64,000 nucleotides of DNA from Heterodontus francisci (Eukaryota). Positions 491 to 59,900 of this stretch are shown one piece after another. Below the pieces are notes generated by a model that was not told where the DNA came from, made no database searches, and saw only the letters and a list, made by a program, of their open reading frames with translations. The stretch is from positions 121,589,191 to 121,653,190 of the forward strand of contig NC_090374.1 of the NCBI RefSeq assembly GCF_036365525.1, read 5' to 3'. Within the stretch, counting starts at the first letter, position 1, and every line of letters starts with the position of its first letter. The position numbers and the translations under genes are program-made.

Positions 491-496
491 TTCTGA

Positions 497-2190
497 TAGA
501 TAGAGCTAAGCGATCCCAGAAGCAATGGATCAGATCAAAGCTCTGCAGTCCTGCCACATCCAGTCATGAATGGTGGTGGACAATTAAACAACTAACAGGG
601 GGAGGAGGCTCCACAAATATTCCCACCCTCAACAATGGAGGAGCCCAGCAATTCAGTGCAAAAGACAAGGCTGAAACATTTGCAACCATCTTCAGCCAGA
701 AGTGCCAAGTGGATGATCCATCTTGGCCTCCTCTTGCATCACAGATGCCAGTCTTCAGCCAATTCAGTTCACTCTCGTTGATATCAAGAAATGGCTGAAG
801 GCACCGGATGCAGCAAAGGCTATGGGCCCTGACAATATACTGGCTGTAGGACTGAAGACTTGTGCTCCAGAACTGGCTATGCCCGTATCCAAGCTGTTCC
901 ATAACAGCTACAACACTGGCATCTATCTGACAATGTGGAAAATTGCCCAGATATGTCCTGTCCGCAAAAAGCAGGATAAATTCAATTTGACCAATTACTC
1001 AATCATTAGCTAAGTGATGAAAGATGTAATCGACAGTGCTATCAAGCAGCCCTTACACAACAATAACCTGCTCACCGATGCTCAGTTTGGGTTCCACCAG
1101 GGCCACTTGACTCCAGACCTCATTACAGCTTTGGTCCAAACATGGACAAACAGCTGAATTCAAGAGGAGAGGTGAGAGCGACTCCCTTTGCCATCAAGGC
1201 AGCATTTGACCAAGTGTAGCATCAAGGAGCCCTAGCAAAATTGAAGTCAATGGGAAAAGGGGAAAACTCTCCACTGGTTACAGTTATAACTAGCACAAAG
1301 GAAGATGGTTGTGGTTATTGGAGGCCAATCATCTCAGTCCCAGGACATCACTTCATCATAAGGTTAGAAATGGGGATGTTCATTGATGTTTGTACAATGT
1401 TCAGCACCATTCGCGACTCCTCAGATACTGAAGCAGTCTGTGCCCGCATGCAGCAAGACTTGAACAATGTTCAGGCTTGGGCTGATAAGTGGCAAGTAAC
1501 ACTCGTGCACACAAGTATCAGGCAATGACTATCTCCAACAAGTAAGAATCTAACCATTTCCTCTTGACATTCTGGAGGTCACCATTGCCATGTAAATACT
1601 GTGGCTACAAGGGCAGGTCAGGGCTGGGAATTCTGTATTGAGTAACTTACCACCTGGCTCCCCAAAGCCTGTCCACTATCTACAAGGCACAAGTCAGAAG
1701 TGTGATGGAATACGCTCCACTTGCCTGGATGGGTGCAGCTCCAACAACACTCAAGAAGCTTGACACCATCCAGGACAAAGCAGCCCACTTGATCTGCACC
1801 CCATTCACCACTTTAAACATTCACTCCCTCCACCACTGGCGCATAGTGGTAGCAGTGTGTACCATCTGCAAGATGCACTACCATAACTTGTCAAGCCTCC
1901 TTCGACAGCACCTTCCAAACCCGCGATCTCTACCACCTAGGACAAGGGCAGCAGATGTATGGGAACACCACCATCTGCAAGTTCCCCTCCCAGCCACACA
2001 CCATTCTGACTTGGAACTATATCGCCTTTCCTCCACTGTTGGGTCAAAATCCTGGAACTCGCTTCCTACCCCAAATGGACTGCAGAGGTTCAAGAAGCCA
2101 GCTCAAGCCACCACCTTCTCAAGGACAATTAGGGATGGGCAATAAATGCTAGCCTAGCCAGCAATGCCCACATGCCGTGAAAGAATAAAA
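497..2190 (+). mobile_element. LINE-A copy (CR1-group APE-RT LINE), 5'-truncated with internal deletions
   Basis: ORF pieces KAMGPDNIL..KTCAPELA and MMEYAPLAWMGAAPTTLKKLDTIQDKAA; family tail ..caattagggatgggcaataaatgct..gcccacat..gaataaaa. Confidence 0.9.
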
Positions 2191-2305
2191 ACACACAATT
2201 AGCTGTATAACTTCAAATGTTGAATAAATACAAGTGGGGAACACACCCAAATTGTTCCTTCCGTTCACTGGCCCATCACATACTCTTGTATTTCACAGTT
2301 CTCGG

Positions 2306-5420: not shown

Positions 5421-6159
5421 GTTGGTTACTTTTGAATACGTTATGTTTTTTGTGTGTAATCGGGTATTTTATTCTGTGACATATGGAGCTGTCAGGTGCA
5501 TTTGTTAATCAGTTATGCAAGCTGTTTATTTTAAAAATAATGTATGGAAGATGATATGTGAATGACAATTTTAACAAAGCATTTATTTTCATCAAATAAT
5601 CTTCAGGGTCTAGTTACCTTTTTTCTTTAGAACATATTTTTGTTAAGGAGCTTTCAAAATTATGATAGCTTGATTAACCCATTTGGTTACACTGATGTGC
5701 AATAGGCTTGAACATAGGGTATTTTCTATAACAGTCATCAGCAAGTACTGGTTTCAGTGGTAATTAAAGTACATAACATTGACACTTACAATATCAGTAA
5801 CAATATTAGCTTGTTTGGATGGCAGATGCGCCAAAATCTTCCATGCTTTGCTTTCTGTGCTTGTAAAAAGCTGGTGTATATAAGCGTACAATGACTTGGA
5901 GCTAATTGTAATAGAATGTTTATCAGCAAACCTTATTTAAAATCGTGGCATAGTCATTAACTATGACTGCACTCCATTTTGGGAATCCTCAATACCAGAT
6001 TTTTCTAATAACTTACAACTTGAAGCTTCATCAAGGTGAGGGATGTTAATGATAGAAAATTAAACACTTTCCATTTTGTGCAGCCGGTGTTAGTTTAGCA
6101 TGGTTGGAAGCAGAATAAAGCTCCTCGAATGTATCTCAGCCCTATCCTTAGATGAGCTC

Positions 6160-6646: not shown

Positions 6647-9600
6647 GGGGGAGGCGGTGGAATAGTGTTAATGTCACTAGGCTAGTAACCCAGAGCCCTG
6701 GGCTAATGCTCTGGCACATGGACTTGAATCCCACCATGGCAAATGTTGGAGTTTGAATTCAATTAATAAATCTGGAATTAAAAAGTTAGTCTAGTGGGCA
6801 TGAAACCATTGTCGATTGTTGTAAAAACCCATCTGGTTCAGTAATGTCCTTTAGGGAAGGAAATCTGCCATCCTTACCTGGTCTGGTCTACATGTGACTC
6901 CAGACCCACAGGAATGTGGTTGACTCTTAAATGCCCGCTGAAATGGCCTAGTAAGCCACTCAGTTGTATCAAACCGTTACAAAGTCAAAGAGAAGGAATG
7001 AAACTGGACAGACCACCTGGCATCGACCTTAGCAAACTCAGCCCTGTTGACCCTGCAAAGTCCTCCTTACTAATATCTGGGGGCTTGAGCCAAAATTGGG
7101 AGAGCTGCCCTGCAGACTAGTCAAGCCACAGCCTGACATATCATACTCACGTAATCATACCTTGCAGACAATATCTCAGACACCATCATCACCATCCCTG
7201 GGTATGTCCTGTCCCATTGGCAGGACAGACCCACCAAAGGTAGCGGCACTGTGGTATACAATTGGGGGGATGTTACACTGAGAGTCCTCAATATTGACTC
7301 CGGACCCCATGAAGTCTCATGGCATCAGGTCAAACATGGGCCAGAAAACCTCCTGGTGATTACCACCTATTGTCCCCCCTCAGCTGATGAATCAGTGCTT
7401 CTCCATGTTGAACACCAATTGGAAGAAACACTGAAGGTAGCAAGGGAACAAAATGTACTCTGGGTGGGGGGAACTTCAATGTCCATCACCAAGCGTTGCT
7501 CGGTAGCACCATTACTGACCGAGCTGGCTGAGTCAGGCTGCTAGACTGGATCTGCGGCAGGTGATGAAGGAATCAACAAGAGGGAAATACCCACTTGACC
7601 TCGTCCTCACCAATTTGTTTTTCCAAAAATATACTTTATTCATAAGAATTTGCAAAAAATACCTAACAGAACAGTTCAAATTTCACATTTTGGAACATGG
7701 GGTGCCTCGCAACTCTTGCCATTCAATTTTATATGCAATGTATATTTGCATTATACAGCAAAAACATTTTTGGCGCATACAGCCCGAGGGGTTTTACACT
7801 GGTTCCAGCCCCTTGGTTCACTATGGCGGGAGATCTAGCAACTCAAAACTGGGCATCCATGAGGCACTGTGGGCCATCAGCAACTGCAGAGTTGTATTCA
7901 ACCACAGTCTGTAACCTCATGGGTGGTATATCCCCCACTCTACCATTACCATCAAGCCAGGGGACCAACCCTTGTTCAATAAAGAGTGTAGGAGGGCATG
8001 CCATGAGCAGCACTATGTTTACCTAAAAATGATGTCTCAGCCTGGTGAAGCTACAACACAGGACTACTTGCATGCCAAACAGCAGAAGCAACATGCAATA
8101 GACAGGGCTAAGCAATCCCACAATCAATGGATCAGATCGAAGCTCTGCAGTCCTGCCACATTCAGTCGTGAATGGTGGTGGACAGTTAAACAATTGACAG
8201 GAGGAGGTGGCTCCACAAACATTCCCATCCTCTATGATGGGGGAACCCAGCATATCAGTGTGAAAGACAAGGCTGAAGCATTTGTATCTATCTTCATCCA
8301 GAAGTGTTAAGCGGATTATCCATCTCGGCCTCCTCCTGAGTTCCCCAGCATCACAGATGCCAGTCTTCAGCCAATGTGATTCAAGAAAAGGCACTGGATA
8401 CTGCAAAAGCTATGGGTCCTGACAACATTCCGTCAATAGTACTGAAGACTTGTGCTCCAGAACTAGCTGTGCCCCTAGCAATGCTGCACCAGTACAGCTA
8501 TAACATTGGCATCTACCTGGCAATCTGGAAATTTTCCCAGGTATGTTCTGTGCACAAAAAGCAGGACAAATCCAACCCAGCCAATTACTGCCCTCTCAGA
8601 CTACTCATGATCATCAGCAAAGTGATGGAAGGAGTCGTTGACAGTGCTATCAAGTGGCACATGTTCAGCAATAACCTGCTCACTGATGCTCAGTTTGGGT
8701 TCCGTCAGGGCCACTCAGATCCTGACCTCATTACAGCCTTGGTCCAAACATGGACAAAAGAGCTGGACTCCAGAGGTGAGGTGAAAGTGATTGCCTTGAC
8801 ATTGAGGCAGCATTTGACCGAGTATGGCATCAAGGAGCCCTAGCAAAATTGGAGTCAATGGGAATCGGGGGAAAACTCTCTGCTGGTTGGAGTCATACCT
8901 AACACAAAAGAAGGTAGTTGTGGTTGTTGTAGGTCAATCAATCATCTCAGTGCCAGGATATCACTGCAGGAGTTCCTCAGGGTAGTGTCCTAGGCCCAAC
9001 TGTCTTCAGCTGCTTTATCAAATACTTTCTCTCCATCATAAGGTCAGAAGTTGGGATGTTCGCTGATAGTGCAACGTTCAGTACTGTTCACAACTGCTCA
9101 GGTACTGAAGCAGTCCATGTCCATATGCAGCAAGATCTGGACAACATTCAAGCTTGGGCTGATAATTGGCAAGTAACATTGGTGCCACACAAGTGTCAGG
9201 CAATGACTATCTCCAACATGAGAGAATCTCACCATCTCCCCCTTGATGTTCAATGGCATTCCCATCACTAAAACCCCCATGATTAGCATCCTGGGTGTCA
9301 CCATTGACCAGAAACTGAACTGGACCAGCCACATAAATGCTGTGGCCATACGAGCATGTCAGAGGCTGGGAATTCTGTGGTGAGTATCTCACTTCCTGTC
9401 TCCCCAATGCCTGTCCACCATCCACAAGGCACAAGTCAGGAGTGTGATGGAATACTCTCCACTTGCCTGGATGAGTGCAGCTCCAGCAACACTCAAGAAG
9501 CTCGACACCATCCAGGACAAAGCAGCCCTCTTGATTGGCACACCATCTACCACCCTCAACATTCACTCTGTTCACCACAGATGCACAGTGGCAGCAGTGT

Positions 9601-9957
9601 GTACCATCTACAAGATGCACTGCAGCAACTCACCAAGGCTCCTTCGACAGCACCTTCCAAACCTGCGACGTCTATCACCTAGAAGGACAAGGGCAGCAGA
9701 TGCATGGGAACACCACCACCTACAAGTTCCCCTCCAAGTCACATGTCATCCTGACTGCGACATATGTTGCTGTTCCTCCACTGCTGCTGGGTCAAGATTC
9801 TTGAACTCCCTTCCTAACAGCACTGTTGGTGTATCTACCCCACGTGGACTGCAGCGGTTCAAGAAGGCAGCTCATCTCCACCACCTCAGGGGCAATTAGG
9901 GATGGGAAATAAAGGCTGGCCTAGTCAACGACTCCCACATCCCCCGAACAAAAAAAA
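6647..9957 (+). mobile_element. Near full-length LINE-A with tRNA/SINE head, frameshifted APE + RT and A-rich tail
   Basis: Head with box A-like tggaatagtgt (~6658) and box B-like gacttgaatcc (6721); APE fragments (TNIWGL, TYCPPSADE) and RT fragments (KAMGPDNIP, QFGFRQGHS, PQGSVLGP); family tail. Confidence 0.92.
7615..7830 (-). mobile_element. 3' end of an unrelated retroelement replacing part of LINE-A
   Basis: AT-rich block absent from the other LINE-A copies; minus strand ends ..gaataaagtatatttttggaaaaa (polyA signal plus A tail). Confidence 0.55.
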
Positions 9958-20733: not shown

Positions 20734-23212
20734 GGGTGGCAAGGGCACAAAATGTACTCTGGGTGGGGGACTTCAATGTCCATCACCAAGAGAGGCTCAG
20801 GCACCACTACTGACCCAGCTGGCCAAGTCCTAAAGGACATAGCTGCTAGACTGGGTCTGTGGCAGGTGGTGGGGGAACCAACAAGGGGGAAAGACATACT
20901 TGACCTCGTCCTCGCCAATCTGCCTGCCGCAGATGCTTCTGTCCATGACAGTATTGGTAGGAGAGACCACTGCGCAGTCCTTATGGAGACGAAGTCCCGC
21001 CTTTAGATTGAGGATACCGTCCATCGTGTTGTGTGGCACTATCACCGTACTAAATGGGATAGATTTTGAACAGATCTAGCAAAGCAAAACTGGGCATCTA
21101 TGAGGCGCTGTGGGCCATCAGCAGCAGCAGAATTGTACTCTACCACAATCTGTAACCTTATGGCCTGGCATATCCCCCACTCTACCATTACCATCAAGCC
21201 AGGAGACCAACCCTGGTTCAATGAAGAGTGCAGGAGGGCATGTCAGGAGCAGCACCAGGCATAGCTCAAAATGAGGTGTGAACCTGGTGAAGCTACAACC
21301 CAGGACTACTTGCATGCCAAACTGCGTAAGCAGCATGCGATAGACAGAGCTAAGCGATCCCATAACCAACGGATCAGATTGAAGCTCTGCATTCATGCCA
21401 CATCCAGCCGTGAATGGTGGTGGACAATTAAACAACTAACTGGAGGAGGTGGCTCCACAAATATCCCCATCCTCAATGATGGGGAAGACCAGCACATCAG
21501 TGCGAAAGATAAGGCTGAAGCATTTGCAACAATCTTCAGCCAGAAGTGCCAAGTTGATGATCCATCTTGGCCTCCTCCTGAAGTCCCCAGCATCACAGAT
21601 GTCAGCCAATTCGATTCACTCCGCGTGATATCAAGAAACGACTGAAGGCACTGGAAACTGCAAAAGCTATGGGCCCTGACAATATTCCGGCAATAGTACT
21701 GAAGACCTGTGCTCCAGAACTTGCCGCGCCCCCAGCCAAGCTGTTCCAGTACAGCTACAACACTGGCATCTACCCTGCAATGTGGAAAATTTCCCAGGTA
21801 TGTCCTGTACACACAAAAGCAGGACAAGTCCAACTCGGCCAATTACCGCCCCATCAGCCTACTCTCAACCATCAGTAAAGTGATGGAAGGTGTCATCATC
21901 AGTGCTAACAAGCGGCACTTGCTTAGCAATAACCTGCTCAGTGACGCTCAGTTTGGGTTCCTCCAGGGCCACTCAACTCCTGACCTCATTACAGCCTTGG
22001 TTCAAACATGGACAAAAGAGCTGAACTCAAGAGGTGAGGTGAGAGTGACTGCCCTTGACATCAAGGTAGCATTTGACCGAGTATGGCATCAAGGAGCCCT
22101 AGCAAAACTGAGGTCAATGGGAATCGGGGGAAAACCCTCCGCTGGCTGGAGTCATACCTAGCGCAAAGGAAGATGGTTGTGGTTGTTGGAGGTCAATCAT
22201 CTGAGCTCCAGGACATCACTGCAGGAGTTCCTCAGGGTAGTGTCCTGGGCCCAACCATCTTCAGCTGCTTCATCAATGACCTTCCTTCAATCATAAGGTC
22301 AGAAGTGGGGATGTTTGCTGATGATTGCACAATGTTCAGCACCATTCGTGACTCCTCAGATACTGAAACAGTCCATGTAGAAATGCAGCAAGACCTGGAC
22401 AATATCCAGGCTTGGGCTGATAGGTGGCAAGTAACATTCATGCCACACAAGTGGCAGGCAATGACCATCTCCAACAAGAGAGAATCTAACCATCTCCCCT
22501 TGACATTCAATGGCATTACCATCGCTGAATCCCCCACTATCAACATCCTAGGGGCTACCATTGACCAGAAACTGAACTGGAGTAGCCATATAAATACCGT
22601 GGCTACAAGAGCAAGTCAGAGACTAGGAATCCTGAGGCGAGTAACTCACCTCCTGACTCCTCAAAGCCTGTCCACCATCTATAATGCACGGGTCAGGAGT
22701 GTGATGGAATACTCTCCACTTGCCTGGATGGGTGCAGCTCCAACAACACTCAAGAAGCTCGACACCATCCAGGACAAAGCAGCCTGCTTGATTGGCACCC
22801 CATCTACAAACATTCACTCCCTCCACCACCGACGCACAGTGGCAGCAGTGTGTACCATCTACAAGATGCACTGCAGCAATGCACCAAGGCTCCTCAGACA
22901 GCACCTTCCAAACCCGCAACCTCTACCAACTAGAAGGACAAGGGCAGCAAATACATGGGAATACCACCACCTGCAAGTTCCCCTCCAAGTCACACACCAT
23001 TCTGACTTGGAACTATATCGCCATTCCTTCACTGTCGCTCGGTCAAAATCCTGGAACTCCCTTCCTAACAGCACTGCGGGTGTACCTACCCCAAATGGAC
23101 TGCAGCAGTTCAAGAAGGCAGCTCACCACCACCTTCTCGAGGGCAATTAGGGATGGGCAATAAATGCTGGCCTGGCCAGTGATGCCTACGTCCCATGAAT
23201 GAATAAAAAAAA
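20734..23212 (+). mobile_element. LINE-A copy, 5'-truncated within APE, young (355-aa RT ORF 22083-23150)
   Basis: VPQGSVLGP..FINDL..MFADD RT motifs; family tail; TSD atatccat / atattcat. Confidence 0.93.
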
Positions 23213-24169
23213 ATATTCATATAGTAGCTTTTCTGTGGAACCAGATTAGTCTTTGCTGCACTGCTTTCACCAAGTTTCAAGGGATTATTTTGTTGTGTGT
23301 TAATCACGGTGCCATTTCTGGCATGACAAATGTTGATAGAGAAATTGGAATTTGCTATCCTTGACACTTTGGTAGGTGAGGAGGACAGCAGTTTGCAGTA
23401 GAGGGGACTGTTACCATGGAGCTCTGTGGCAGGAGTTACTCCAAGGGTGTTGGCAGTTTGTGGCCTATCATCACCAAGTACTGATCAAATACATCTAGGT
23501 TACAGTGGAGGAAGGGGTGATTCAGGTCAAGGATGTGTTGCTCAGTGAAGGTAATGCGCTGCTGACTGCCATTCAGATCATTGATTCTTTGGAGGTTCCC
23601 TGATTTTGGTGAGTATGGCAAACTTGCCTCCAATGACGCAGAAACTGGAGAGTATTGTAGTCAAGTCCATTGTCAGTTTTATCTATGTGGAGCCAATTTT
23701 CGTGAAGGCACAGAGCAAATCTTGGAGAAGCATCAATGACTGGTGAACTGTTAGTGATCAAAAGGGACTGGTGAGAGGTGGGGAAGGGAGAGACAGAGAG
23801 ATAAAGAACCACTCACTCAAGTTACAGCAACATCTTGGCTCGACCTTGGTGGGGTCCGCTAATATGTATGGGCCACAAAATTGGACAGGGCCTGAAAACT
23901 GATGCTGGGATCGTGATGTGGATTAGTCCACGCCCATTGCTTCCAGTGCAGGCGGCACACAAACTTTGTGCTGCCTGCTAATTTCAATGATTATAGCACG
24001 CAGCCTGTGCTAGACAAGCTGTTGAGTATGACAATTAGTGCAAAAATGGTGAGAGGCTAGAATGAGTTAAAGCTAGCCTGCAGTACTTAAAAGCAGCCTG
24101 CATCTCTTAAAGGGAACGTACATTGTGACTGGAGCAGGAGCTGGAAATCATTGTAAAAGTGATTTTGAC

Positions 24170-25134: not shown

Positions 25135-26365
25135 TTTTGTTCTTCATGGGATGTGGGCATCACTGGCAATGCCAGCATTCATTGCCCATCTCTAATTGGC
25201 CTTGAGAAGGTGGTGAGCCGCCTTGAACTGCTGTAGTGCATGTGATGTAGGTAAACCCACAATGCTGCTCGTGAGGGAGTTGCAGGATTTTCAGCACGAT
25301 TCATGACTCCTCAAATACTGAAGTAGTCCGTGTAGAAATGCAGCAAGACCTGGACAATATCCAGGCTTGGGCTGATAAGTGACCAGTAACATTTGCGCCA
25401 CATAAGTGCCAGGCAATGACCATCTCCAACAAGAGAGAATATAACCATCTCCCCTTGACATTCAATGGCATTACCATCGCTGAATCCCCCACTATCAACA
25501 TCCTAGGGGCTACCATTGACCAGAAACTGAACTGGAGTAGCCATATAAATACCGTGGCTACAAGAGCAGGTCAGAGCTAGGAATCCTGAGGCGAGTAACT
25601 CACCTCCTGACTCCCCAAAGCCTGTTCACCATCTACAAGGCACAAGTCAGGAGTGTGATGGAATACTCTCCACTTGCCTGGATGGGTGCAGCTTCAACAA
25701 CACTCAAGAAGCTCGACACCATCCAGGACAAAGCAGCCCGCTTGATTGGCACCCCATCCACAAACATTCACTCCCTCCACCACCAACGCACAATGGCAGC
25801 AGTGTGTACCATCTACAAGATGCACTGCAGCAACGCACCAAGACTCCTTAGACAGCACCTTCCAAACCTGCAACCTCTACCACCTCGAAGGACAAGAGCA
25901 GCAGATGCATGGGAACATCACCACCAAGTTCCCGTCCAAGTCACACACCATCCTGACTTGGAACTATATTGCCATTCCTTCACTGTCGCTGGGTCAAAAT
26001 CCTGGAACTCCCTTCCGAACAGCACTGTGGGTGTACCTACCTCACATGGACTGCAGCGGTTCAAGAAGGCAGCTCACCACCACCTTCTCGAGGGCAATTA
26101 GGAAGGATGGGCAATAAATGCTGGCATAGCCAGTGACACCCACAACCCATGAATGAATTAAAAAAAATTTTTTTTGACCGTGTCAGTGAAAGAATGGCGA
26201 TGTATTTCCACAGGCAGGATGGTGTGTGACTTGGAGGGGAACTTGCAGATGGTGGTGTTCCCATGCGTCCCCTGCCCTTGTTCTTCTAGGCGGTAGAGGT
26301 CGCGGGTTTGGAAGATGCTGTTGAAGGGGGCTTGGCGAGTTGCTGCAGTGCATTTTGTAAATGGT
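25135..26365. mobile_element. LINE-A (+) copy 25291-26168 inserted in a LINE-A (-) 3' fragment (25135-25290 plus 26170-26365)
   Basis: The flanks rejoin as gggagttgcaggatttt|gacc..cagtgaaagaatgg, which is the minus-strand family sequence. Confidence 0.8.
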
Positions 26366-28629: not shown

Positions 28630-29595
28630 TCATTCTCCCTGTAATAAATGTAATGTTTCCAAATTCGCAGATGACACAAAACCCGATGGGAATGTGTATT
28701 GTGAGGAAGATGTAAAGCGGCTTCAAGGCAATTTGGACAGACTTAGTGAGTGGGCAAGAGCATGGCAGATGGAATATAATGTGGAAAAATGTGAGATTAT
28801 CCATTTTGGTAGGAGGGATAGATGTGCAGAGTATTTCTTAAATGGTAAGAGCTTAGAAAGTGGAGATGTATGAAGTGACCTGGGTTTCCTTGTCAATAAG
28901 TCACTGAAAGCTAACATGCAGGTGCAGCAAACAATTATGAAGGCTAATGGTATGTTAGTCTTTATCACAAGAGGATTTGAGCACAGGAGTAGTGAAGTCT
29001 TGCTTCAATTGTATAGAACCTTGGTTAGACCGCACCTGGAGTACTGTGTGCAGTTTTGGTCCCCTTACCTTAGGAAGGATATTATTGCCATAGAGGGAGT
29101 GCAACGAAGGTTCACCAGACTTCTTCCTGGAATGGCAGGACTGTTCTATGAAGAGAGATTGGGGAAACTGGGCCTGTATTCTCTAGAATTGCAGAGAATG
29201 AGAGGTGATCTCATTGAAACCTACAAAATACTTAAAGGGATAGACAGGGTAGATGCAGCTAAAATGTTTCCCCTGGTTGGGGAGTCTAGAACCAGGGGAC
29301 ACAATTTCAAAATAAGGGGGAAACCACTTAGGACCGAGATGAGAAGAAATTTCTTTGCTCGGAGGGTTGTGAATCTTTGGAATTCTCTACCCCAGAGGGC
29401 TGTGGAAGCTCAGTCATTGAGTATGTTTAAAGCAGAAATGGACAGATTTCTAAATTTCAATGACATAAAGGGATATGGGAGCATATTCCGTGTGGGGAAA
29501 AAGGCATTGAAGTGGATGATTAGCCATGATCGTATTGAATAGCAGAGCAGGCTCGATGGGCTGAATGGCCTACTCCTGCTCCTATATTCCTGTCA
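28630..29595 (+). mobile_element. CR1 LINE 3' part (RT C-terminus, 208-aa ORF 28916-29542)
   Basis: SKFADDTK, LYRTLVRPHLEYCVQFWSP..RGDLIETYKI..TRGH; CR1 tail ggctgaatggcctactcctgctcctat. Confidence 0.92.
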
Positions 29596-39400: not shown

Positions 39401-40440
39401 CGGCCCTCTGAAAGAGCAATTCACTCAGTTCCATTCCCCCACCTTCTCCCTGTAACCCTGCACATTCTTCCTTTTCATATAGCTATCCAATTCCCTTTTG
39501 AATGCCTCAATTCCTCTTTTCTCCTTCTGTATGCTGGTGCCCATCCCTCAACCACACTCGTGAACCTCCCCACAAGGACATTGGTCCCAGTCCTGTTGAG
39601 GTGCAACCCATCCCTTTTGAATAGGTGCCTCCTGCTCCAGACATGGTCCCAGTGCCCCAAGAATCTGAAGTCCTCCTCTTTGCACTATGCCTCAATCCTT
39701 GTATTGATCCTCCCTAAGTTGACGATTTCTACTCTCGCTAGCGTGTGGCACTGGGAGTAATCCAGAGATTAATACCTTTGAGGTCCTACTTTCTAACTTC
39801 CTCCCTAGCTCCTGAAAGTCTGACTGTAGGACCTCAAAACCTGCCCTCTCCGTCATTGTTACTCACATGCCACAACTTCTGGCTCACTCCCTTCCGCCTG
39901 CAGAATAACTTGTATACCGTGATGTCCTTTAGCCTGGCACCAGGGAGGTAACACGCCATGCGGGACTCATGATGACGGTTACAGGAACACCTGTCTGTCC
40001 CCCTATCGAATCACCTTTCAAGACTGCATTTCTACTCTTTGCTGTTCCCGCATGTGCTGTCCTTTGTCTATTGGTGTCATTGTCTGCACTGCTTTCCTTC
40101 AAGGTGTCAGCACTCCCAGCAGTATCCAATGTTGAGTTTGAAAGTGGCATACACCCTATGGACTCCTGTACTTCCTGCCTCTTTCTATGTTTCTGGTTAT
40201 CCACCCATCTGCCCTGAACTCCCTCTGGCTGTGGGGTGACCACCTCATGGAATGTATGAACCAAGAAACTCTCATCCTCCCAGATGCTCTGCAGTGACTC
40301 CAGCTGTCTCTCCAGCTTGTAAATCCTGAGCTTGAGCTCATGCAGCTGAAGACCCTTCCTACACACCTGGTCCCCAAGACTCGTGAAGTATCCTGAAATT
40401 CCCACATGGTGCAGGAATGGTGCGCAACAGGTCTCAGCTG
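36440..40440 (-). mobile_element. Near full-length degenerate CR1 LINE (ORF1 zinc finger/leucine zipper + SGNH esterase; ORF2 APE-RT)
   Basis: ORF1 pieces MWE..CRKGLQLHELKLRIYKLERQL, KGDSI and RDGLHLN; ORF2 pieces YRPPN, GKSDH and YINDLD..SKFA. Confidence 0.85.
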
Positions 40441-40844: not shown

Positions 40845-43065
40845 ATTTTCCAAAATTCCCTATATTATGGAAAGCTACTAGTAGATTGGACGGTAGAAAA
40901 TGTTATGCCACTATGTAAAAAAGGAGGGAGAGAGAAAACAAGGAACTACAGGCCAGTTAGCCTGACATCAGTTGTCGGGGAATATGCTGGAATCCATTAT
41001 TAAGGAAGTGGTAACAAGGCACTTAGAAAATCATATGATGATTAGGCAGAGTCAACATGGTTTTGTAAAAGGGAAATGGTATTTGACAACTCTATTCGAG
41101 TTTATTTCAAATGTAAATGTCAATGTATATAAAGGGGATGTAGTATATTTGGTTTTTAAAAAAGCATTCTGAAAGTTGCCACATGAAAGATAGTTTCACA
41201 AGATGAAGATTCATGGAGTTTAGAGTAATATGTTAGCGTGGATGGAGGATTGGCCGTAGGGCACAAAAATAAGAGAGTAGGAATAAACAGGTCGTTTTCT
41301 AGTTGGCAGGCTGTCACTGGTGGAGTGCCGCAAGGATCAGTACTGGCATCTCAGCTGTTTACAATCTCTATTACTGACTTGGTTGAAGGTGCTGAATATA
41401 ATGTATCCACGTTTGCTGATACAGCAAAGTTAGATGGGAAAATAAGCTGGGAGGAGGATACAAAGGGCTGAATTTTACCAGCCCCTCAACATGGGGGGGG
41501 GGCTGTTAAATATTTGTGGGAGCGGCCCACCACGGCCCCCAACGCCAGGAAGACCCTGCTGCATTTTATTGCTGGCAGCGAGGCCTCGGTGCGCACCCCC
41601 CCCCCCCCACCCTCCCAAATGGCAGGGCCTTCATTTAAATGTTAAAATTAATTAAAAACAAATGCTAATTAACTTACCTGGTTCCGGCGGCCGTCCCATG
41701 CCGATTTTACGGCCACTGTTCGGAACTCTGTATGGAGTTCTGAGGCAAGACACCGGTAGGGAGAGGGGAGGAGTGAAATTATCAGGACGGGGGGGGGGGG
41801 GGGGGGGAGAGGGAGTGGGGAAAACCTTTCTTATTGGCTGTGGGGATGGTGGGAAGGGGTTGAAAGGCAAATGTGAAGAGGTTGGGGGGAAATGTTTGGG
41901 ATGCTAATAAAGTTAATTGTCTACATTTTTGCAATAAAAAACACGTTTAGAGGGGTTGGGAAAGGGCCTCCAGCTTTTTATTATTTTTAAAATGCAAATG
42001 AACGGTTATATAACTTTAAGACTTTAATTCGTTCCTTGAAGCCCTTTAAAAATGGCGCCTGTGCGGTGGCGCCGGATGCCATTGCCGGGGACGGAGCAGT
42101 CGCCCCCGCCCCGCTCCCCACCTACGTCCTCGGGGACGGCCGCTCTGTCCCCTCCATTTAAATGAGCCCCATGCAAAATATTGCGGGGGATCAGCGGCAG
42201 TGCGCTAATAAAATTCAGCCCAAAGAGTCTGCAAAGGGATATAGATAGGTTAAGTGATTGGACAAGAAGGTGGGAGATGTGAGGTGGTTCATGTCAGTTA
42301 CAAGAATAGAAAAACTGAATTTTTTAAAATGGTGAGAAATTATTAAATGTTGCTGTTCAGAGGCATTTTGGTGTCCTTGTACGCAAAATACTGGAGGTTA
42401 ACATGCAGGTACAGCCAGGAATTAGTGAAGATAAATTATAAGTTGGCCTTTATTGCAAGGGGGTTGGAGTACAAAATTAAGGAAATCTTACTGCATTTCT
42501 ACAGGGCCTTGGTGAGACCACACCTGGAGGTCGGTGTATAGTTTTGGCCTTCATACTTAAGGGAAGATGTACTTGTCTTAGAGGGGGTGCAGTGAAGTTC
42601 ACTAGATTGATTCCTGGGAACAGAGGCTCATTCTTCTAGGAAAAATTGAGTAGAATGGCCCCATACTGTCTAGCGTTTAGAAGAATGATAGGTGATCTCA
42701 TTGAAACATATAAGATTCTTAGAGGGCTTGACAGGGTAGATGCTGAGGCACTGTTTCCTCTGGCTGGAGAGTCTGCAACTAGGGGGCATAGTCTCAGGAT
42801 AAGGGGTCGGCCATTTATGACTTGGATGAGGAGAAATTTCTTCACTCAGAAGGTTATGAATCTTTGGAATTCTCTACCCCAGAGGGCTATGGATGCTCAG
42901 TTGTTGAGTATATTCAAGGCAGAGAGTGATAGATTTTTGAGCTGTTGAATCAAGAGATATGGGAATCAGGTGGCAAACTGGGGTTGAGGTCAAAGATCAG
43001 ACATTGAATGGTGAAGCGATTTCAAAGGGCTGTATGGCTGCCTCCTCCTATTTCTTATGTTCTTA
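40845..43065 (+). mobile_element. CR1 LINE RT to 3' end, interrupted by a MITE
   Basis: NYRPVSLTSVVG, GVPQGSVL, STFADT, GDLIETYKILRG..TRGH, CR1 tail. Confidence 0.88.
41465..42221. mobile_element. PIF/Harbinger-type MITE
   Basis: Perfect 13-bp TIRs gggctgaatttta / taaaattcagccc and a 3-bp TSD AAA; excision restores the CR1 sequence gaggatacaaagagtctg. Confidence 0.85.
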
Positions 43066-45065: not shown

Positions 45066-48000
45066 TTTTTTTTTTATTCACTCATGGGATGTGGGCGTCG
45101 CTGGCCAGGCCAGCATTTATTGCCCATCCCTAATTGCCCTTGAGAAGGTGGTGGTGAGCTGCCTTCTTGAACCGCTGCAGTCCACGTGGGGTAGGTACAC
45201 CCACCAGTGCTGTTAGGAAGGGAGTTCCAGGGTTTTGACCCAGCAACAGTGAAGGAATGGCGATATAGTTCCAAGTCAGGATGGTGTGTGACTTGGAGGG
45301 GATCTTGCAGGTGGTGGTGTTCCCATGCATTTGCTGCCCTTGTCCTTCTAGTTGGTAGAGGTCGCGGGTTTGGAAGGTGCTGTCTGAGGAGCCTCGGTGC
45401 GTTGCTGCAGTGCATCTTGTAGATGGTACACACTGCTGCCACTGTGCGTCGGTGGTGGAGGGAGTGAATGTTTGTGGATGGGGTGTCAATCAAGCAGGCT
45501 GCTTTGTCCTGGATGGTGTTGAGCTTCTTGAGTGTTGTTGAAGCTGCACCCATCCAGGCAAGTGCAGAGTATTCCATTACATTCCTGACTTGTGCCTTGC
45601 AGATGGTGGACAGGCTTTGGGGAGTCAGGTGGTGAGTTACTCGCCTCAGGATTCCTAGCCTCTGACCTGCTCTTGTAGCCACAGTATTTATATGGCGACT
45701 CCAGTTCAGTTTCTGGTCAATGGTAGCCCCTAGGATGTTGATAGTGGGGGATTCAGCGATGGTAATGTCATTGAATGTCAAGGGGAGATGGTTAGATTCT
45801 CTCTTTTTGGAGATGGTCATTGTCTCGCACTTGTGTGGTGCGAATGTTACTTGCCACTTATCAGCTCAAGCCTGGATGTTGTCCAGGTCTTGCTGCATTT
45901 CTACACTGACTGCTTCAGTATCTGAGGAGTCACGAATGGTGCTGAGCATTGTGCAATCATCAGCGAACATCCCCACTTCTGACCTTATGATTGAAGGAAG
46001 GTCATTGCTGAAGCAGCTGAAGATGATTGGGCCTAGGACACTACCCTGAGGAACTGCTGCAGTGATGTCCTGCAGCTGAGATGATTGACCTCCAACAACC
46101 ACAACCATCTTCCTTTGCGCTAGGTATGACTCCAACCAGCGGAGGGTTTTCCCCCTGATTCCCATTGACTTCAGTTATGCTAGGGGTCCTTGATGCTGCC
46201 TTGATGTCAAGGGCAGTGACTCACACCCCTTGAATTCAGCTCTTTTGTCCATGTTTGAACCAAGGCTGTAATGAGGTCAGGAGTTGAGTGGCCCTGGCGG
46301 AACCCAAACTGAAGGTCACTGAGCAGGTTATTGCTCAGCAAGTGCCGCTTGATGGCACTGTTGATGACACCTTCCATCACTTTACTGATGATTGAGAGCA
46401 GGCCAATGGGGCGGTAATTGGCCTGGTTGGACTTGTCCTGCTTTTTGTGTATGTGACATACCTGGGCAATTCTCCACATTGCAGGGTTGATGCCACTGTT
46501 ATAGCTGTACTGGAACAGCTTGGCTGAGGTGCGGCAAGTTCTGGAGCACAGGTCTTCAGTACTATTGCCGGAATATTGTCAGGGCCCATAGCCTTTGCAG
46601 TATTCAGTGCCTTCAGTCCTTTCTTAATATCACGTGGAGTGAATCGAATTGGCTGAAGTCTGGCATCTGTGATGCTGGAGACTTCAGGAGGAGGCCGAGA
46701 TGGATCATCAACTCGGCACTTCTGGTTGAAGATTGTTGCAAATGCTTCTGCCTTATCTTTCGCACTGATGTGCTGGGTTCCCCCATCATTGAGGATGGGG
46801 ATATTTGTGGAGCCACCTCCTCCAGTTAGTTGTTTAATTGTCCACCATCATTCACAGCTGGATGTGGCAGGACTGCAGATCTTAGATCTGATCCGTTGGT
46901 TATGGGATCGCTTAGCTCTGTCTATTGCATGCTGCTTACGCAGTTTGGCATGCATATAGTCCTATGTTGTAGCTTCACCAGGTTGACGACTCATTTTGAG
47001 GTATGCCTGGTGCTGCTCCTGGCATGCCCTCCTGCACTCTTCATTGAACCAGGGTTGATCTCCTGGCTTGATGGTAATGGTAGAGTGGGGGATATGCCAG
47101 GCCATGAGGTTACAGATTGTGGTTGAGTATAATTCTGCTGCTGCTGATGGCCCACAGCACCTCATGGATGCCCAGTTTTGCATTGCTAGATCTGTTCGGA
47201 ATCTATCCCATTTAGCACGGTGGTAGTGCCGCGCAACACAATGGAGGGTATCCTCAATGCGAAGACGGGACTTCGCCTCCACAAGGACTGTGCGGTGGTC
47301 ACTCCTACCAATACTGTCATGGACAGATGCATCTGCGGCAGGCAGATTGGTGAGGACGAGGTCAAGTATGTTTTCCCTCTTGTTTGTTCCCTCTCCACCT
47401 GCCACAGACCCAGTCTAGCAGCTATGTCCTTTCGGACTCGGCCAGCTCGGTCAGTAGTGGAGCTACCAAGCCACTCTTGGTGATGAACATTGAAGTCCCC
47501 CGCTAAGAGTACATTCTGTGCCCTTGCCATCCTCAGTGCTTCCTGCAAGTGCTGTTCAACATGGAGGAGTACTGACTCATCAGCTGAGGGAGGGCAGTAG
47601 GTGGTAATCAGCAGGAGGTTTCCTTGTCCATGTTTGACCTGATGCTATGAGACTTCATGAGGTCCAGAGTCGATCTTGAGGACTCCCAGGGCAACTCCCT
47701 TCCGACTTTATACCACTGTACCGCCACCTCTGTTGGATCTGTCCTGCCAGTGGGACAGGACATACCCGAGGATGGTGGTAGTAGTGTCTGGGACATTATC
47801 TGTAAGGTATGATTCCGTGAGTATGACTGTCGGGCTGTTACTTGACTAGTCTGTGGGACAGCTCTCCCAACTTTGGCGCAAGCCCCCAGATGTTAGTAAG
47901 GAGGACTTTGCAGGGTCAAAAGGGCTGGGTTTGCGTTTGTCGTTTCCGGTGCCTAGGTTGATGCCGGGTGGTCTGTCCAGTTTGATTCTTTTTTATTGAC

Positions 48001-48320
48001 TTTGTAGCGGTTAGGTACAACTGAGTGGCTTGCTAGGCCATTTCAGAGGGCATGTAAGAATCAACCACATTGCTGTGGGTCTGGAGTCACATGTAATCCA
48101 GACCAGGTAAGGACAGCAGATTTCCTTCCCTGAAGAACATTACTGAACCAGATGGGTTTTTACAACAATTGACAATGGTTTCATGGCCATCGTTAGACTA
48201 GCTTTTTAATTCCAGATTTATTCATTGAATTCAAATTCCACTTTCTGCTGTGGTGGGATTTGAACCCATGTCCCCAGAGCAGTACCCTGGGTCTCTGGGT
48301 TACACTGGTGCAATGATGCA
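45066..48320 (-). mobile_element. Near full-length LINE-A with tRNA/SINE head
   Basis: Box B GGTTCAAATCC (complement of 48256-48266); APE (GDFNVHH, IGRSDH) and RT (PQGSVLGP, MFADD); tail and polyA at 45066-45075. Confidence 0.93.
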
Positions 48321-50989: not shown

Positions 50990-51505
50990 GAACATTGAAA
51001 AATAGGAGCAGGAGTAGGCCATTCGGCCCTTCAAGCCTGTACCACCATTCAGTACGATCATGGCCCCTTATCCTTAGACTGTGACCCCTGGTCCTGGACT
51101 CCCCCGCCATCGGGAACATCCTTCCTGCATCTAGTCGGTCCAGTCCTGTTAGAATTTTGAGGATTTCTATGAGATCCCCTCTCGTTCTTCTTCTAAACCC
51201 TAGCGAATACAAGCCTAATCGACCCAATCTCTCTTCATATGTCAGTCCTGCCATCCCAGGAATCAGTCTGGTGAAACTTCGCTGCACTCCCTCCATAGCA
51301 AGAACATCCTTCCTCAGATAAGGAGACCAAAACTGCACTTCTGCAATAATACTCCAGATGTGGTCACACCAAGGCCTTGTATAATTGCAGCAAGACATCC
51401 TTGCTCCTGTACTCAAATCCTCTCGCTATGAAGGCCAACATACCATTTGCCTTCTTAACTGCCTGCTGCACCTGCATGCTTACTTTCAGCGACTGGTGCA
51501 CAAGG
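50990..51505 (-). mobile_element. CR1 LINE 3' fragment
   Basis: VQFWSPYLRKDVLAMEGVQR..GDLIEILKIL..TRGHSLRIRG. Confidence 0.85.
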
Positions 51506-52035
51506 AATATCATCTGTTTTCCCAATTTTTACTTTGCTTTCTGATCATTTAAATCTCATTTATAGCTCCTGCATTATAATTCCTGGTTTAGACTCTGCCT
51601 GTCTCTGAGGATTCTCCAATCTGATTGGTTGAAGTGCCTCGCTGTATCTTGACCAACTCATGGATGCCGCGCTGGATCAGACACTGGATTAGAGCAAGTC
51701 TCCACTCAAAAGCCATTTACAACTTTGTGGGCGGTTGTCAGAGAGGTGAACAGCAAGCATTGTTTCTTTGCCGTTGACTGCAAAACCCAGGCTAATATTT
51801 TCATGTCAGTTCAGAAATTTGGCATAAATAATTGCCTTTTACAGGAGGCCTGTCACCTTTTGTAGAAGATTTTGAATTTCTTGACTGATTTTATTCGGTG
51901 AATACACAAGGATAGGTTATGCCAGAAGGTTCCTTTCATCAAACCCGATTTAGATGTTGCAGTTTTTCTTTGTTTATTAATTCCTTGTTTCCTTGAATTA
52001 GCTATAGCAAGTAACTCGCCTCCTGTCTCTCCTAT

Positions 52036-52540
52036 GCCTGTCCACCATCTATAAAGCACAAGTCAGGAGTGTGATGGAATATTCTCCGTTTGCCTGGATG
52101 GGTGCAGCTCCATTAACACTCAAGAAGTTCAACACCATCCAGGACAAAGCAGCCAGCTTGATTGGCACCCCATCCACCACCTTCAACATTCACTGCCTTC
52201 GCCACCAATGCACAGTGGCAGCAGTATGTACCATCTACAAGATGCACTGCAGCAACTCACCATGCCTTCTTCGACATCACCTTCCAAACCCGCAACCCCT
52301 TCCACCTGGAAGGACGAGGGCAGCAGATGCATGGGAATGCCACCGCCTGCAAGTTCCCCTCCAAGCCACACACCGTCCTGTGTGGTTACTTGGAACTATA
52401 TCGCCGTTCCTTTACTGTCCCTGGATCAAAATCCTGGAACTCCCTTCCTAACAGCGCTGTGGTTTTCTACACCCCTAAGGACTGCAGCAGTTCAAGAGGG
52501 CAGCTCACCACCACCTTCTCAAGGGCAATTAGGGATGGGC
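52036..52540 (+). mobile_element. LINE-A 3' fragment
   Basis: MMEYSPFAWMGAAPLTLKKFNTIQDKAA; ends at ..caattagggatgggc. Confidence 0.88.
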
Positions 52541-52620
52541 ATGGAAGATGGCAGGATCCCCAAGGACACATTGTACAGCGAGCTTGTCACTGGTATCAGA
52601 CCCACCGGCCGTCCGTGTCC
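52541..52620 (+). mobile_element. RTE-clade LINE fragment
   Basis: MEDGRIPKDTLYSELVTGIRPTGRP matches the typical RTE C-terminal motif (RLPK.LLY.EL..G.R..GRP). Confidence 0.65.
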
Positions 52621-52752: not shown

Positions 52753-53169
52753 GGGGAGATGGTGACGTCGTGGTAATGTCGCTGAACTAGTATTCCAAAG
52801 GTCCAGGCTAATGCCCAGGGACACGAGTTCAAATCCGACCATGGCAGCTGGTGGAATTTAAATTCAATTAATTAATAAAAAAAAATCTGGAATTGAAAGC
52901 TAGTTTCAGTGATGGTGCCATGAAAGTATCATCGATTGTTGTTTTAAAAGAAAACCATATGGGTTCACTAACGTCCTTTAGGGAAGGAAATCTGCCATCC
53001 TCACCTGGTCTGGCCTACATGTGACTCTAGACCCACAGCAATGTGATTGACTCTTAACTGCCCTCTGAAATGGCCTAGGAAGACACTCAGTTGTCAAGTG
53101 CAATTAGGGATGGGCCACAAATGCTGGCCTTGCCAGTGATGCCCACATCTCATGAGAGAATTAAAAAAA
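52753..53169 (+). mobile_element. tRNA-derived SINE sharing both its 5' head and 3' tail with LINE-A
   Basis: Box A-like tgacgtcgtgg and box B gttcaaatcc; body colinear with 6647-6967, then jumps to the LINE-A tail caa..caattagggatggg..gcccacatc..A-run. Confidence 0.88.
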
Positions 53170-53862
53170 TTTCCAATGTGCTAAACCTCAAAGGGTTAGC
53201 AGAGAAATTAGCAATTGGGTTAATTAAAATACACCAAATTGTTTGTTTGATAAGGTTATCCAGGGTGTACATGGAGAAGATAATTTTTCATTATTGATTC
53301 TTGGTTGTGAAAACAGTTGAGAGAATTTGGCAGAACTGTACCAGTATATTAAGACTGGAATACTCAATTGGTAGGGTGTTTGACCCATACTTAAGAGTTA
53401 GGGAGTTGAATGATGGTAAGGACCAATCATCCTTTGATGTTCTAAGGTTGGTGAATGGCATACCACTAATGGGAATGAATGGAGTCAGAAAAGTTGTATA
53501 CAAGACAGAACACATAAGCATGGAATATTACCAAATGGCACTCCTAGTTCATGGGTGAAACAGAGATGGCACTGTGCCTAACAATATGTCAAAATGTTAC
53601 AGTAAGCTGGGGAATTGTAGCCTCAGCCTAAATATACACCATTACTGGCATTCCTGGCCCTTTATATTTAATGTAAACTTATTATTGGTGTTTAGAAGAA
53701 AAAATTGAATTAATTTGTGACTCAAAGGAAGCTGGCTGTTTATAACAGTATTTGCTAATGCAATGTATTTTTCCCCAAATTTTATTGAGAAGGTAAATAT
53801 GCAAATTGGAATTTTGTAGAAAATGTCCTTTATTTAAAAAAATTATATTTCTTTGATTCCAG

Positions 53863-56487: not shown

Positions 56488-56935
56488 CTTTTTTTATTCC
56501 TTCAAGGGATATGGGCGTCGCTGGCTAAGCCAGCATTTATTGCCCAGCCCTAATTCCCCTTGAAAAAGTGGTGGTGAGCTGCCTCTTGAACCGCTGCAGT
56601 CCACGTCACGTAGGTACACCAATAGTGCTATTAGGAAGGGAGTTCCAGGATTTTGACTCGGTGACAGTGAAGGAACGGCGATATAGTTCCAAGTCAGGAC
56701 CGTGTGTGACTTGGAGGGGAACTTGTGTGTTCCCATGCATCTACTGCCCTTGTCCTTCTAGGCGGAAGAGGTTTGGCAGGTGCTGTCGAAGGAGCCTTGG
56801 CGAGTTGCTGCAGTGCATCTTGTAGATGGTACACACTGCTGCCACTGTGTGTCGGTGGTGGAGGGAGCGTATATTGAAAGTGGTGGATGGGGTGCCAATC
56901 AAGCGGGCTGCTTTGTCCTGGATGGTGTCAAGCTT
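56488..56935 (-). mobile_element. LINE-A 3' fragment
   Basis: KKLDTIQDKAARLIGTPST..; family tail. Confidence 0.88.
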
Positions 56936-59900
56936 CTTTCTGCAGTCTGTAGCTTTTTTCTTCATTATTAATCACATGGCCAATTTTTGTATTGCCTGCT
57001 GGACTTCTTAATCATACCCCTATATTCGAGTCCACGTCATCGATATAAGCCACTAAAAACAAGGGGCCTAGTACTAAGACCTGCGGAACCTCAGTGGAAA
57101 CAGCTTTCCAGTCACACAAAACACCAGTGACAATTACCCTTTGCTTCCTGCCTCTGAGCCAATTTTGGATCCAACTTGTCACTTTGCCTTGGTTCCAGTG
57201 GGCTTTTACTTTCGTCACCAATCTGCCATGTGGGACTTGCCCAAAAGCCTTGCTAAAATCCATATAGACTACATCAAATACACTACCCTCATCGACCCTC
57301 CTTGTTACCTCCTCAAAATATGAATCATGTTAGTCAGACATGACCTTCCCTTAACAAATCCGTGCTGACTTTTTGATTAATCTGTGTCTTTCTCAATGAA
57401 GATTTTTCCAGTCCCTCAGAATTTTTTCCAATAATTTGTCCACCACTGAGGGTAGGCTGACTGGCCTGTAACTACTTAGTCTATCCCTTTCTCCCTTTTT
57501 AAATAATGATGAATACTTAATGAATACTTTGTATCTGTTTTCACAAAAGAGAGGGGAGGTGCAGGTCCTCCATTCCTCTGGCACCACCCCTGTAGACAGG
57601 TAGGATTGAAAAATGATGGTCAGAGTCTGCTATTTCTTCTCTCGCTTTGCTTAGCCTAGGATATATTTCACCTGGGCCTTGGGATTTGTCCACTTTCAAA
57701 GATGTTAAATCCCTTAATACTCTCTGTTAATTTTATCTAATATTTCATACTCCTCCTCCCTGATTGTAATGCCTGTATCTCCCCTCTCTTTTGTGAAAAC
57801 AGATACAAAGTATTCATTAAGAACCATATCGATGTCCATTGCCTCCATGCTCAAGTTACCCTTATGGTCCTGAATAGGCCCTACTCTTTCTTTAGTTTCC
57901 TGTTGCTCTTCATGTATTTATAAAAAATCTTCGGGTTTTCCTTGATTGTACTTGTCAATATTGTTTCTTTGCTTTCCAAATGTCCTTTTTAATTTTACTC
58001 CTACACTTTTTAATACTCCTTTAGGTTTTTTTTGCAGTATTGAGCCCTCTTTATGTCATAAGCTTTCCTTTTTCTCTTCATCCTCTCCTTTAACATCCCT
58101 TGACATCCAGTGGGTTTTGGATTTGTTCGTCTTACCTTTTTTTAAGCGAACATAGTTGTTCTGAACCCTCACTATCTTTTCCTTGAATGCCCCTGGCACT
58201 GATTTACCTTCAAGTAGCTGTTTCCAGCCCACTTCAGCTAAATTGCATCTCAGCTTAGTAAAATTAGCTTTTCTCCAATTGAGAACTTTTTTCCTGGTCT
58301 ATCTTTGTCCTTTTCCATAACTACCCTAAATCTGACTGAATTATACTCACTTCTACCAAAGTGCTCCCCAACTGATACCCCTTGCACTTGCCCAGCTTCC
58401 TTCCCTAAAACTAAATCCAGAACCACCTCTTATTGAGCTTGCTATGTACTGGCTTAAAAAAAAGTTCTCCTGAATGCATTTTTAAGAAATCTGCTCCCTG
58501 TATGCCTTTCATACTAAGTTCATTCCAGTTAATATTAGGGTAGTTGAAATCCCCCACAATTACTGCCCTATTGTTTTGCACTTCTCAGAGATTTGCCTAC
58601 ATATTTGCTCTTCTAATTCCCTCTGACTGGGGGTCTATAAGTATACTCCCAGTAGTGTGATTTCCCCCTTTGTTCTTCATTTCAACCCATATGGCCTCAT
58701 TTGATGATCCTTCTGCCATATCATCCCTCCTTACATCTATAATTGTTTCTTTAATCAATATTGCGACCCCCTTCTCCTTTTTATCCCCCTCTCTATCTCA
58801 TCTGAAAATTCTGTAACCAGGAATGTTGGGCTACCATTTCTGCCCTTTCAGCCATGTCTCAGTAATATCCACATGTCAATCTGTGCTCTCTACTCAACTG
58901 CCTTACCCGCTAGAATTCTTGCATTGAAGTATATGCCATTTAGCAAGGTCAAACTCCCTTGTTGTCTATTTTTATAGCCTTTGTTTCCTCTGCCTTCCAA
59001 ACGCACTTACTAATTTGCTGCCTTCCATTTCCAATTTCTCTGCTTTCTGAATCTACTCTCATATTCCCATCTCCCTATTAAGCTAGTTTAAACCCTCCCC
59101 AACAACACCAGCGAGGATATTTATACTGGTCCGGCTGAGGTGCAATCCGTTCGGCTTGTACAGGTCAAATCTCCCCCAGAAGCAGTCCCAATGCCTCAGG
59201 AAACTAAAGCCCTCTTTCCTGCACCATCTCTCTGGCCACGTATTCATCAGCTCTATCTTCCTATTTCTGTACTCACTGGCGTGTGGCACTGGGAGAAATC
59301 CAGAGATTACTACCTTTTGAGGTCCTGCTTTTCAATTCTCTCCTAGATCACTCCTCCAACTCTGATCAGTGAATTCCCGCCACCCCACTTCATTCCACTA
59401 TCAGATGCCATGACCCCATCCTCTGAACTCCTTCCCCAAACTTGCCACCTTGCATTCTATGTTCCCATCTTTAAACACCTTCTCAAAACTCATCTCTTTG
59501 ACAATGCCTTTGGTAATCTTTCCTAACTCCTATACTATTGTGCTTGTTTCTCTTTGTGAAATGCCTTGAAATGTTTTTCCATGTTAAAGGCACAAGTCTG
59601 TTGCTGTTTACTTCAATTCTTTAGAGGTTTATTCCTCTTTTCCTTTGAGTAAATAAACCTGCACTTGGTATCTCATTAGATGGTTACAACTGACTGCAGA
59701 TTTTATAGGAATTTTGAGAAACTCCGATTTGAATGTAACATGCCCTTTACCACTCAGTGATGAAGCTTATGGGAGGAGTAATACTAAAGAAAGAAGTTGC
59801 CTTATGAAATTGTACTTGAGATGCTCTCACAAGCATATATAAAATTTCAGGCTTTATTTAGGTTATTGCTTACCTATGAGATATTGGTATGACAAACCAA

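Follow-up and report, generated by a model that had tools for sequence, protein, structure and literature searches.

Two near-full-length copies of one LINE in the window

The 64-kb stretch of Heterodontus francisci DNA analyzed here (the window) contains two near-full-length copies of one LINE on opposite strands, 45066-48303 on the minus strand and 6647-9957 on the plus strand, together with truncated copies, 3' fragments and a SINE-like short form of the same family (Table 1). The earlier note had described two copies in opposite orientations that share a head placed before an APE-RT frame, and this description is confirmed by an 83% alignment running from the head into the endonuclease (48303-47343 on the minus strand with 6685-7617 on the plus strand) and by Pfam matches on window pieces to APE (PF14529, PF03372) and RVT_1. 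The span given there for the minus-strand copy, 45066-48320, is correct at its 45066 end, and the 5' start is placed here at 48303. As element nt 1-38 are missing from this copy, box A included, it carries a box B (GGTTCAAATCC at 48266-48256, as claimed) but no box A. The box A-like and box B-like motifs claimed for the plus-strand copy are present in degenerate form at 6658-6668 and 6721-6731.

The minus-strand copy belongs to a younger layer of the family, matching the family majority at 95% with five deletions and one insertion, and the plus-strand copy belongs to an older layer, matching at 88%. Stops and frameshifts are present in both long copies, and the copy at 45066-48303 is a dead element. 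In the plus-strand copy, about 210 unrelated bases at 7618-7830 stand in place of element nt 1003-1151; this insert opens with a T-rich run and resembles an antisense insertion of another repeat.

Table 1. Copies and parts of the LINE family located in the window (nt numbers refer to the element)
Feature	Position	Strand	Basis or remark
Zenon LINE copy, decayed, tRNA-headed, younger layer	45066..48303	-	alignment to family majority
Head: remaining tRNA-like part (to ~nt 95) and conserved non-coding leader (to nt 325)	48017..48303	-	also in short forms
Box B (GGTTCAAATCC)	48256..48266	-	motif
Conserved out-of-frame AUG site; ATC in minus-strand copy	47984..47986	-	ATG in 94/109 copies covering the site
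Remnant of single 975-codon frame (Arg-rich leader, APE, RT, C-terminal part); stops and frameshifts	45130..48032	-	
APE endonuclease region, approximate	47295..47909	-	Pfam
Reverse transcriptase region, approximate	45709..46452	-	projected from Pfam matches on other copies
3' tail and poly(A) end, common to short forms	45066..45142	-	
Older-layer copy, head complete but degenerate; break at ~7618-7830	6647..9957	+	
Degenerate box A, plus-strand copy	6658..6668	+	
Degenerate box B, plus-strand copy	6721..6731	+	
Out-of-frame AUG, intact in plus-strand copy	6998..7000	+	
SINE-like short form: LINE nt 1-325 and last ~70 nt of LINE	52753..53170	+	
Zenon LINE copy, 5'-truncated	20734..23213	+	
Zenon LINE copy, 5'-truncated	25280..26171	+	
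Zenon LINE copy, 5'-truncated, older	496..2191	+	
Zenon LINE 3' fragment	52007..52541	+	
Zenon LINE 3' fragment	56489..56938	-	

The head as a constant component of the element

A query combining the head and the APE region returned 11,402 candidates in the 6.0-Gb genome, of which 40 were scored and 39 regions were fetched. Unbroken elements of 3.2-3.3 kb, running from the same G-rich start to a poly(A) end, were found in 27 of the 39 fetched regions, and the other 12 were interrupted, rearranged or shortened. The earlier note had held that the head belongs to the replicating unit and had suggested looking for full-length copies that start at the tRNA-like head, with target-site duplications spanning head to tail. 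The 27 elements are such copies, and an A run after GAAT ends most of them; the duplications, on the other hand, are absent from most copies, as a longest common word of at least 7 was found in 5 of the 27 compared to 44 of 702 control pairs, with about four well placed by eye.

Because a head-plus-APE query favors headed copies, a second search was conducted with an APE-only query, for which 30 of 40 matches were fetched, one being the window's own copy. The head start was reached in 17 of the 29 other copies, and the break fell inside the head in 10 and at nt 345-351, just past the head, in 2. No alternative leader or ORF1 was detected upstream among these 29 copies, and the 12 short ones have no common leader. 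A 21-nt motif across the junction of head and ORF yielded 9005 exact matches in the genome (0 for the reversed control), and an 18-nt motif at the leader end yielded 20,344. Among the first 90 motif matches along contig C1, 42 enter the frame, 42 join the LINE 3' end and the other 6 continue differently, and 28 of the 42 ORF-linked heads reach nt 1-11. The unbroken copies and these ORF-linked heads bear out the claim that the head replicates with the LINE, and a full-length element structure with a fixed head is near certain. The claimed lack of an ORF1 also stands, given that only 309 nt precede the open frame and that the APE-only copies have no other leader. Headed copies or fragments also lie beside or within other headed copies, in tandem or nested arrangement, at L066:4262-4798, L035:1427-1980 and L049:4685-5201.

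Anatomy of the head and leader

A young majority sequence was built from 28 copies that are 94.8-97.6% alike to it, and comprises 3291 nt before the A tail. Its nt 1-95 are tRNA-like, with a box A at nt 12-22 and a box B at nt 76-86 that fit the standard A and B motifs. The best head alignment is to tRNA-Thr(TGT) of the same genome (z 6.8), an isotype resting on a comparison with four distinct tRNA sequences, all of them Thr or Lys, drawn from 30 loci, and the element starts some 4 nt ahead of the aligned tRNA +1. ARAGORN made no tRNA call on the heads of the window copies and Rfam made none on 10 young copies, in which the T-arm part alone scored, weakly; no ribozyme family in Rfam was matched. 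A CpG-rich patch is located at nt 326-440 (o/e 1.11), for which Arg codons also account, and an AATAAA occurs at nt 120 of the head as well as some 45 nt ahead of the poly(A) end.

Two candidate properties of this region were rejected. Special conservation of nt 351-470 was suggested by a 121-nt stretch free of non-CpG changes, but longer stretches of this kind occur at three other places. Identity of the leader with the Deu domain or SacSINE1 was dismissed on the absence of any likeness, by eye, to the printed Deu alignment and on the L2-2 tail described for SacSINE1.

A selected coding frame whose conserved AUG is out of frame

The young majority contains one open frame at nt 310-3237, equal to 975 codons, in which the first in-frame methionine is codon 285, past the APE domain. 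The older layer (14 of 111 copies, below 91.5% to the majority) yields a majority of its own in which the same frame is open. Outside CpG sites, the two majorities differ by 64 synonymous and 33 non-synonymous codon changes, with no stop in either. This synonymous excess places the 975-codon frame under purifying selection, and the frame, open in both layers, was in all likelihood translated and selected. Pfam recognizes APE and RT in one frame of a natural copy (L121). A natural 733-aa frame of a copy outside the window, in which Pfam finds both domains, is the longest among the fetched copies, none of which is fully open.

The reverse transcriptase is 38% identical to that of a CR1 of the same genome. 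In a quick RT tree built without a named Zenon reference, the element falls outside a starred (96) group that contains the same-genome CR1, in the open basal part of the tree near the lepidopteran-like L199/P0003; this tree separates the element from canonical CR1/L2 and places it no more closely. A metagenome scan with the shark protein gave no match. Annotated shark proteins P0001, P0021, P0032, P0042 and P0050 include pieces of the LINE frame at 55-85% identity, which are probably gene-model artefacts or exonised repeats.

An AUG is found at nt 356 in 94 of 109 copies, in the +1 frame, where it opens 46 codons. It lies about 25 codons before the APE domain, and in 89 of 109 copies there is no net frame change between the two. 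The genome holds 9005 matches to the out-of-frame form and only 7 to a form in which one more base follows the AUG, and the idea of an in-frame master lineage hidden among the copies was rejected. Four head-less invertebrate relatives (32-35% identity) have an in-frame methionine about 17-24 codons before APE, a position close to that of the AUG at nt 356. Among published elasmobranch consensuses, of which the first 400 nt were compared by eye, the ray sequence has the same out-of-frame AUG, and SquAca_Zenon-2, a shortened dogfish consensus, apparently brings the AUG into frame through a 14-nt deletion; one of the others has no AUG, and in four these 400 nt end before the frame becomes readable. 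No strong folding signal suggestive of an IRES or frameshift structure was detected in the leader (z -1.3 to +1.4; head -2.15), and no standard slippery heptamer was seen by eye.

Avoidance of T-runs on the sense strand

Vertebrate Pol III terminates at runs of four or more T. The 3291 nt of sense strand contain no TTTT in the young or the old majority, which are non-independent samples, and 14 AAAA runs are present in the young one. As the element is T-poor (20% T), this absence is a weak test when taken alone, with P values of 0.02 and 0.09 under synonymous nulls and 0.20 and 0.55 under Markov nulls. TTT gives the stronger signal: the frame has 4 such runs, where two synonymous nulls predict 18.4 and 12.7 (P<0.001), and the o/e of TTT in the headed LINE is 0.26-0.29, with no depletion of AAA. 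No 8-nt window with six T was found. The TTTT seen at nt 1144 in 21 of 111 copies is CpG decay, and cannot be the master state because the decay there also makes a stop.

Control families from the same genome, a young RTE and two CR1 families, contain 4, 11 and 9 TTTT, with TTT o/e values of 0.95-1.71, and the four head-less invertebrate relatives contain 10-24 TTTT, with values of 0.85-1.02. The exceptions are one half of a control CR1 frame (1 TTTT compared to 4.6 expected, P 0.027) and two invertebrate relatives with a slight TTT deficit under one of the nulls (P 0.019 and 0.043). In codon usage, TTA accounts for 0 of 92 Leu codons in the young frame (0 of 91 in the old layer) compared to 5 of 96 in the RTE control, which fits avoidance of TT; a scarcity of Phe relative to the same-genome RTE was not significant (P 0.16). 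The gain of the head, the loss of T-runs and the loss of the AUG occur together in one lineage and constitute a single, unreplicated evolutionary event.

The RTE control is a very young family, its 40 scored copies being about 99% identical, and is inserted in a Zenon copy (L056:2740-4620; L139-L158). A young CR1 family with copies 97-98% identical and a short T-rich repeat tail is likewise inserted in a Zenon copy (L041:2700-3790 on the minus strand; L159-L178).

Short forms derived from the LINE

The majority sequence of the SINE-like short forms consists of LINE nt 1-325 joined to the last ~70 nt, with the same 5' start as the LINE. At least 10 different junctions occur among the 48 matches that do not enter the ORF, examples being 323-3224, 325-3224, 323-3227, 324-3204, 326-3196, 337-3157, 338-3178 and 361-3143. 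At seven diagnostic head sites, 15 of 28 short forms are old-type, 5 are young-type and 8 are mixed. Because of this number of junctions and the presence of both old and young head alleles, many short forms appear to have come from the LINE by deletion, and these patterns indicate a repeated origin of short forms from the LINE, or recombination between the two. The suggestion of the earlier note that the LINE may have captured a SINE promoter gains no support, as local SINEs are largely deletion products of the LINE; the head may first have come from a tRNA or from an older SINE. In a tree of heads (flank included, bootstrap unsettled), LINE and short forms interleave with 11 changes, of which the starred branches force only two, so that no weight is placed on this tree.

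Relation to Zenon and other known systems

Stuart et al. 2026 (PMC13343379) report, in the main text, Zenon elements from elasmobranchs, coelacanth and hagfish that always lack ORF1 and carry poly(A), and state that elasmobranch Zenon was previously in no repository. Judged by eye on the first 400 nt, all seven elasmobranch consensuses of that paper, from five species (CarCar, HypSab, RhiTyp, ScyCan and SquAca_Zenon-1/2/3), begin with the same head, with the junction visible by eye, no ORF1 and poly(A), whereas the three hagfish and coelacanth consensuses do not. Five of the seven are 3.24-3.31 kb long, like the element described here, and no structural difference was noted. By this sequence comparison, the shark element is the elasmobranch Zenon of PMC13343379, a family known since 2026. 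The absence of an ORF1, which the earlier note had presented as an oddity, is therefore real but normal for Zenon as described in that text. The main text makes no mention of a tRNA, a promoter or a polymerase, and passes over the head, the T-run avoidance and the start problem.

According to the available parts of PMC6740152 and PMC4016481, lepidopteran Zenon is likewise about 3.3 kb long, ends in poly(A) and yields short internally deleted copies; its deletion derivative Persaeus lacks both tRNA homology and a Pol III promoter, unlike the shark short forms. The Zenon-like invertebrate relatives differ from the shark element in their in-frame AUG and normal T-runs, and canonical CR1 elements differ in having an esterase ORF1 and a microsatellite tail, where the shark element has no ORF1 and a poly(A) end. 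R2 and L1Tc, as presented in the part of PMC6765202 consulted, are autonomous single-frame elements translated from uncapped RNA that is released by HDV-like ribozymes from Pol I or polycistronic transcripts, without the tRNA promoter of the shark element.

The tRNA-derived or bipartite SINEs treated in parts of PMC5786205 and PMC7245038 likewise combine a box A/B head with a LINE-derived tail, in short forms made of LINE 5' and 3' sequence. In the bipartite-SINE model (PMC5786205, in part) a head is acquired once the deletion has taken place and the LINE remains a Pol II element, whereas in the shark family the head sits on the coding element. Set against the definition of SINE2, the element has the tRNA-derived box A/B head, but at 3.29 kb and with a selected frame it is neither short nor non-coding, as only its deletion forms are. 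SacSINE1 and the DeuSINEs of sharks (PMC5499810 and PMC7245038, both in part) are also tRNA-headed and differ in their Deu body and L2-2 tail. RTE-1_DAn and relatives, LINEs of the RTE clade said in PMC5786205 to hold tRNA-like sequence, may be a precedent; the other literature consulted did not link RTE-1_DAn with tRNA. Beyond that sentence, the literature consulted, in part as excerpts, yielded no Pol III-driven or tRNA-headed autonomous LINE, and Repbase, Dfam or supplements may hold one.

Proposed expression of the element and competing explanations

A head with Pol III boxes, the avoidance of T-runs and the lack of an in-frame AUG before the enzyme domains together make this a likely Pol III-made protein-coding element. 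We consider it fairly probable that the active element is transcribed by Pol III from its tRNA-derived head and translated from a non-standard start. The broader reading, that of an autonomous, Pol III-transcribed 3.3-kb mRNA found across sharks and rays, with purged terminators, no in-frame AUG and SINEs born by deletion, would have a slightly better than even chance of being correct.

Under this proposal, Pol III would start at the G-rich first bases and, because T-run terminators appear to have been purged, could read through 3.3 kb. The RNA would probably be uncapped, and its translation would either begin at a non-AUG codon or involve recoding downstream of the conserved AUG; candidate non-AUG starts are TTG at nt 322, AAG at nt 340 and AGG at nt 352, and read-through of an in-frame AUG-Ala-stop at nt 301 is a further candidate route. 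The APE-RT protein would copy this RNA by target-primed reverse transcription, the route established for LINEs. Internal deletions keep the promoter and the tail, and would therefore produce ready-made SINEs. Contigs from four runs, three of them only guessed to be RNA, cover the element; contigs cannot show start, strand, level or polymerase.

In the available text of PMC10886601 and PMC5786205, LINEs use Pol II and SINEs use Pol III, which is regarded as too poorly processive for autonomous elements, and PMC10886601 argues that its processivity limits such elements to ~1.3 kb. If true, Pol III transcription of a high-copy vertebrate LINE would break this division, would provide a natural system for the translation of a Pol III RNA and would allow SINE birth in one step, by deletion from a headed LINE instead of head capture. 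The published consensuses, combined with simple box or TTTT mutants, make the Pol III reading directly testable.

A possible, though rather unlikely, alternative is that the head is a fixed 5' UTR working as, or beside, a Pol II promoter, with its boxes kept for other reasons such as TFIIIC binding, and that T-runs are scarce either as an evolutionary relic or because U-rich splice or termination signals are selected against. The LINEs in the cited literature, as far as those texts go, are Pol II products (Pol I for R2), switching of 5' UTRs is common in LINEs, and both the CpG-rich patch, readable as a Pol II promoter, and the AATAAA close to the poly(A) end would suit such an element. However, the presumably Pol II-transcribed LINEs of the same genome and the head-less relatives do not have the TTT depletion, a capped RNA has no obvious cause to lose its in-frame AUG, the AATAAA is found in the head as well, and the 5' start is common to the LINE and the short forms.

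Transcription by Pol III is also favored over the improbable explanation that the tRNA-like head is a processing signal by which the element is cut from host RNAs, for example by RNase P, leaving an uncapped RNA with a non-standard start. Such processing would account both for a sharply defined 5' end and for the absence of the AUG, and uncapped, IRES-like translation has a precedent in R2 and L1Tc (PMC6765202, in part), but it leaves the T-run depletion unexplained. Neither ARAGORN, on the window copies, nor Rfam, on the 10 young copies, called the head a tRNA, the element begins ~4 nt ahead of the aligned tRNA +1, and no ribozyme family in Rfam was matched.

It is very improbable that another LINE moves the element as a non-autonomous passenger, in the form of a long, untranslated SINE-like RNA, even though no in-frame AUG precedes APE and no fetched copy is fully open: 975 codons are open in both layers with a 64:33 synonymous excess, APE and RT motifs are present, and the CR1 and RTE families examined differ in their 3' ends. 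Finally, the possibility that a SINE and a truncated LINE lie side by side by accident or through faulty assembly is practically negligible and is refuted by the 9005 exact junction-motif matches, the 42 of 90 consecutive head matches that enter the frame and the same head in the first 400 nt of seven published consensuses from five species.

Other repeats in the window

The ORF1 that the earlier note had ascribed to an old CR1 at 36440-40440 on the minus strand is present as an upstream esterase-like remnant, read by eye; a Pfam scan of one piece of this CR1 detected no esterase. Positions ~39280-39520 of the same CR1 look like the inserted 3' end of another CR1. A stop-free frame of 325 codons at 4531-5508 on the plus strand has no Pfam match. 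A further repeat family is located at three sites in the window (28886-29449, 42390-42936 and 50999-51507), with weak RT similarity at 28646-29125.
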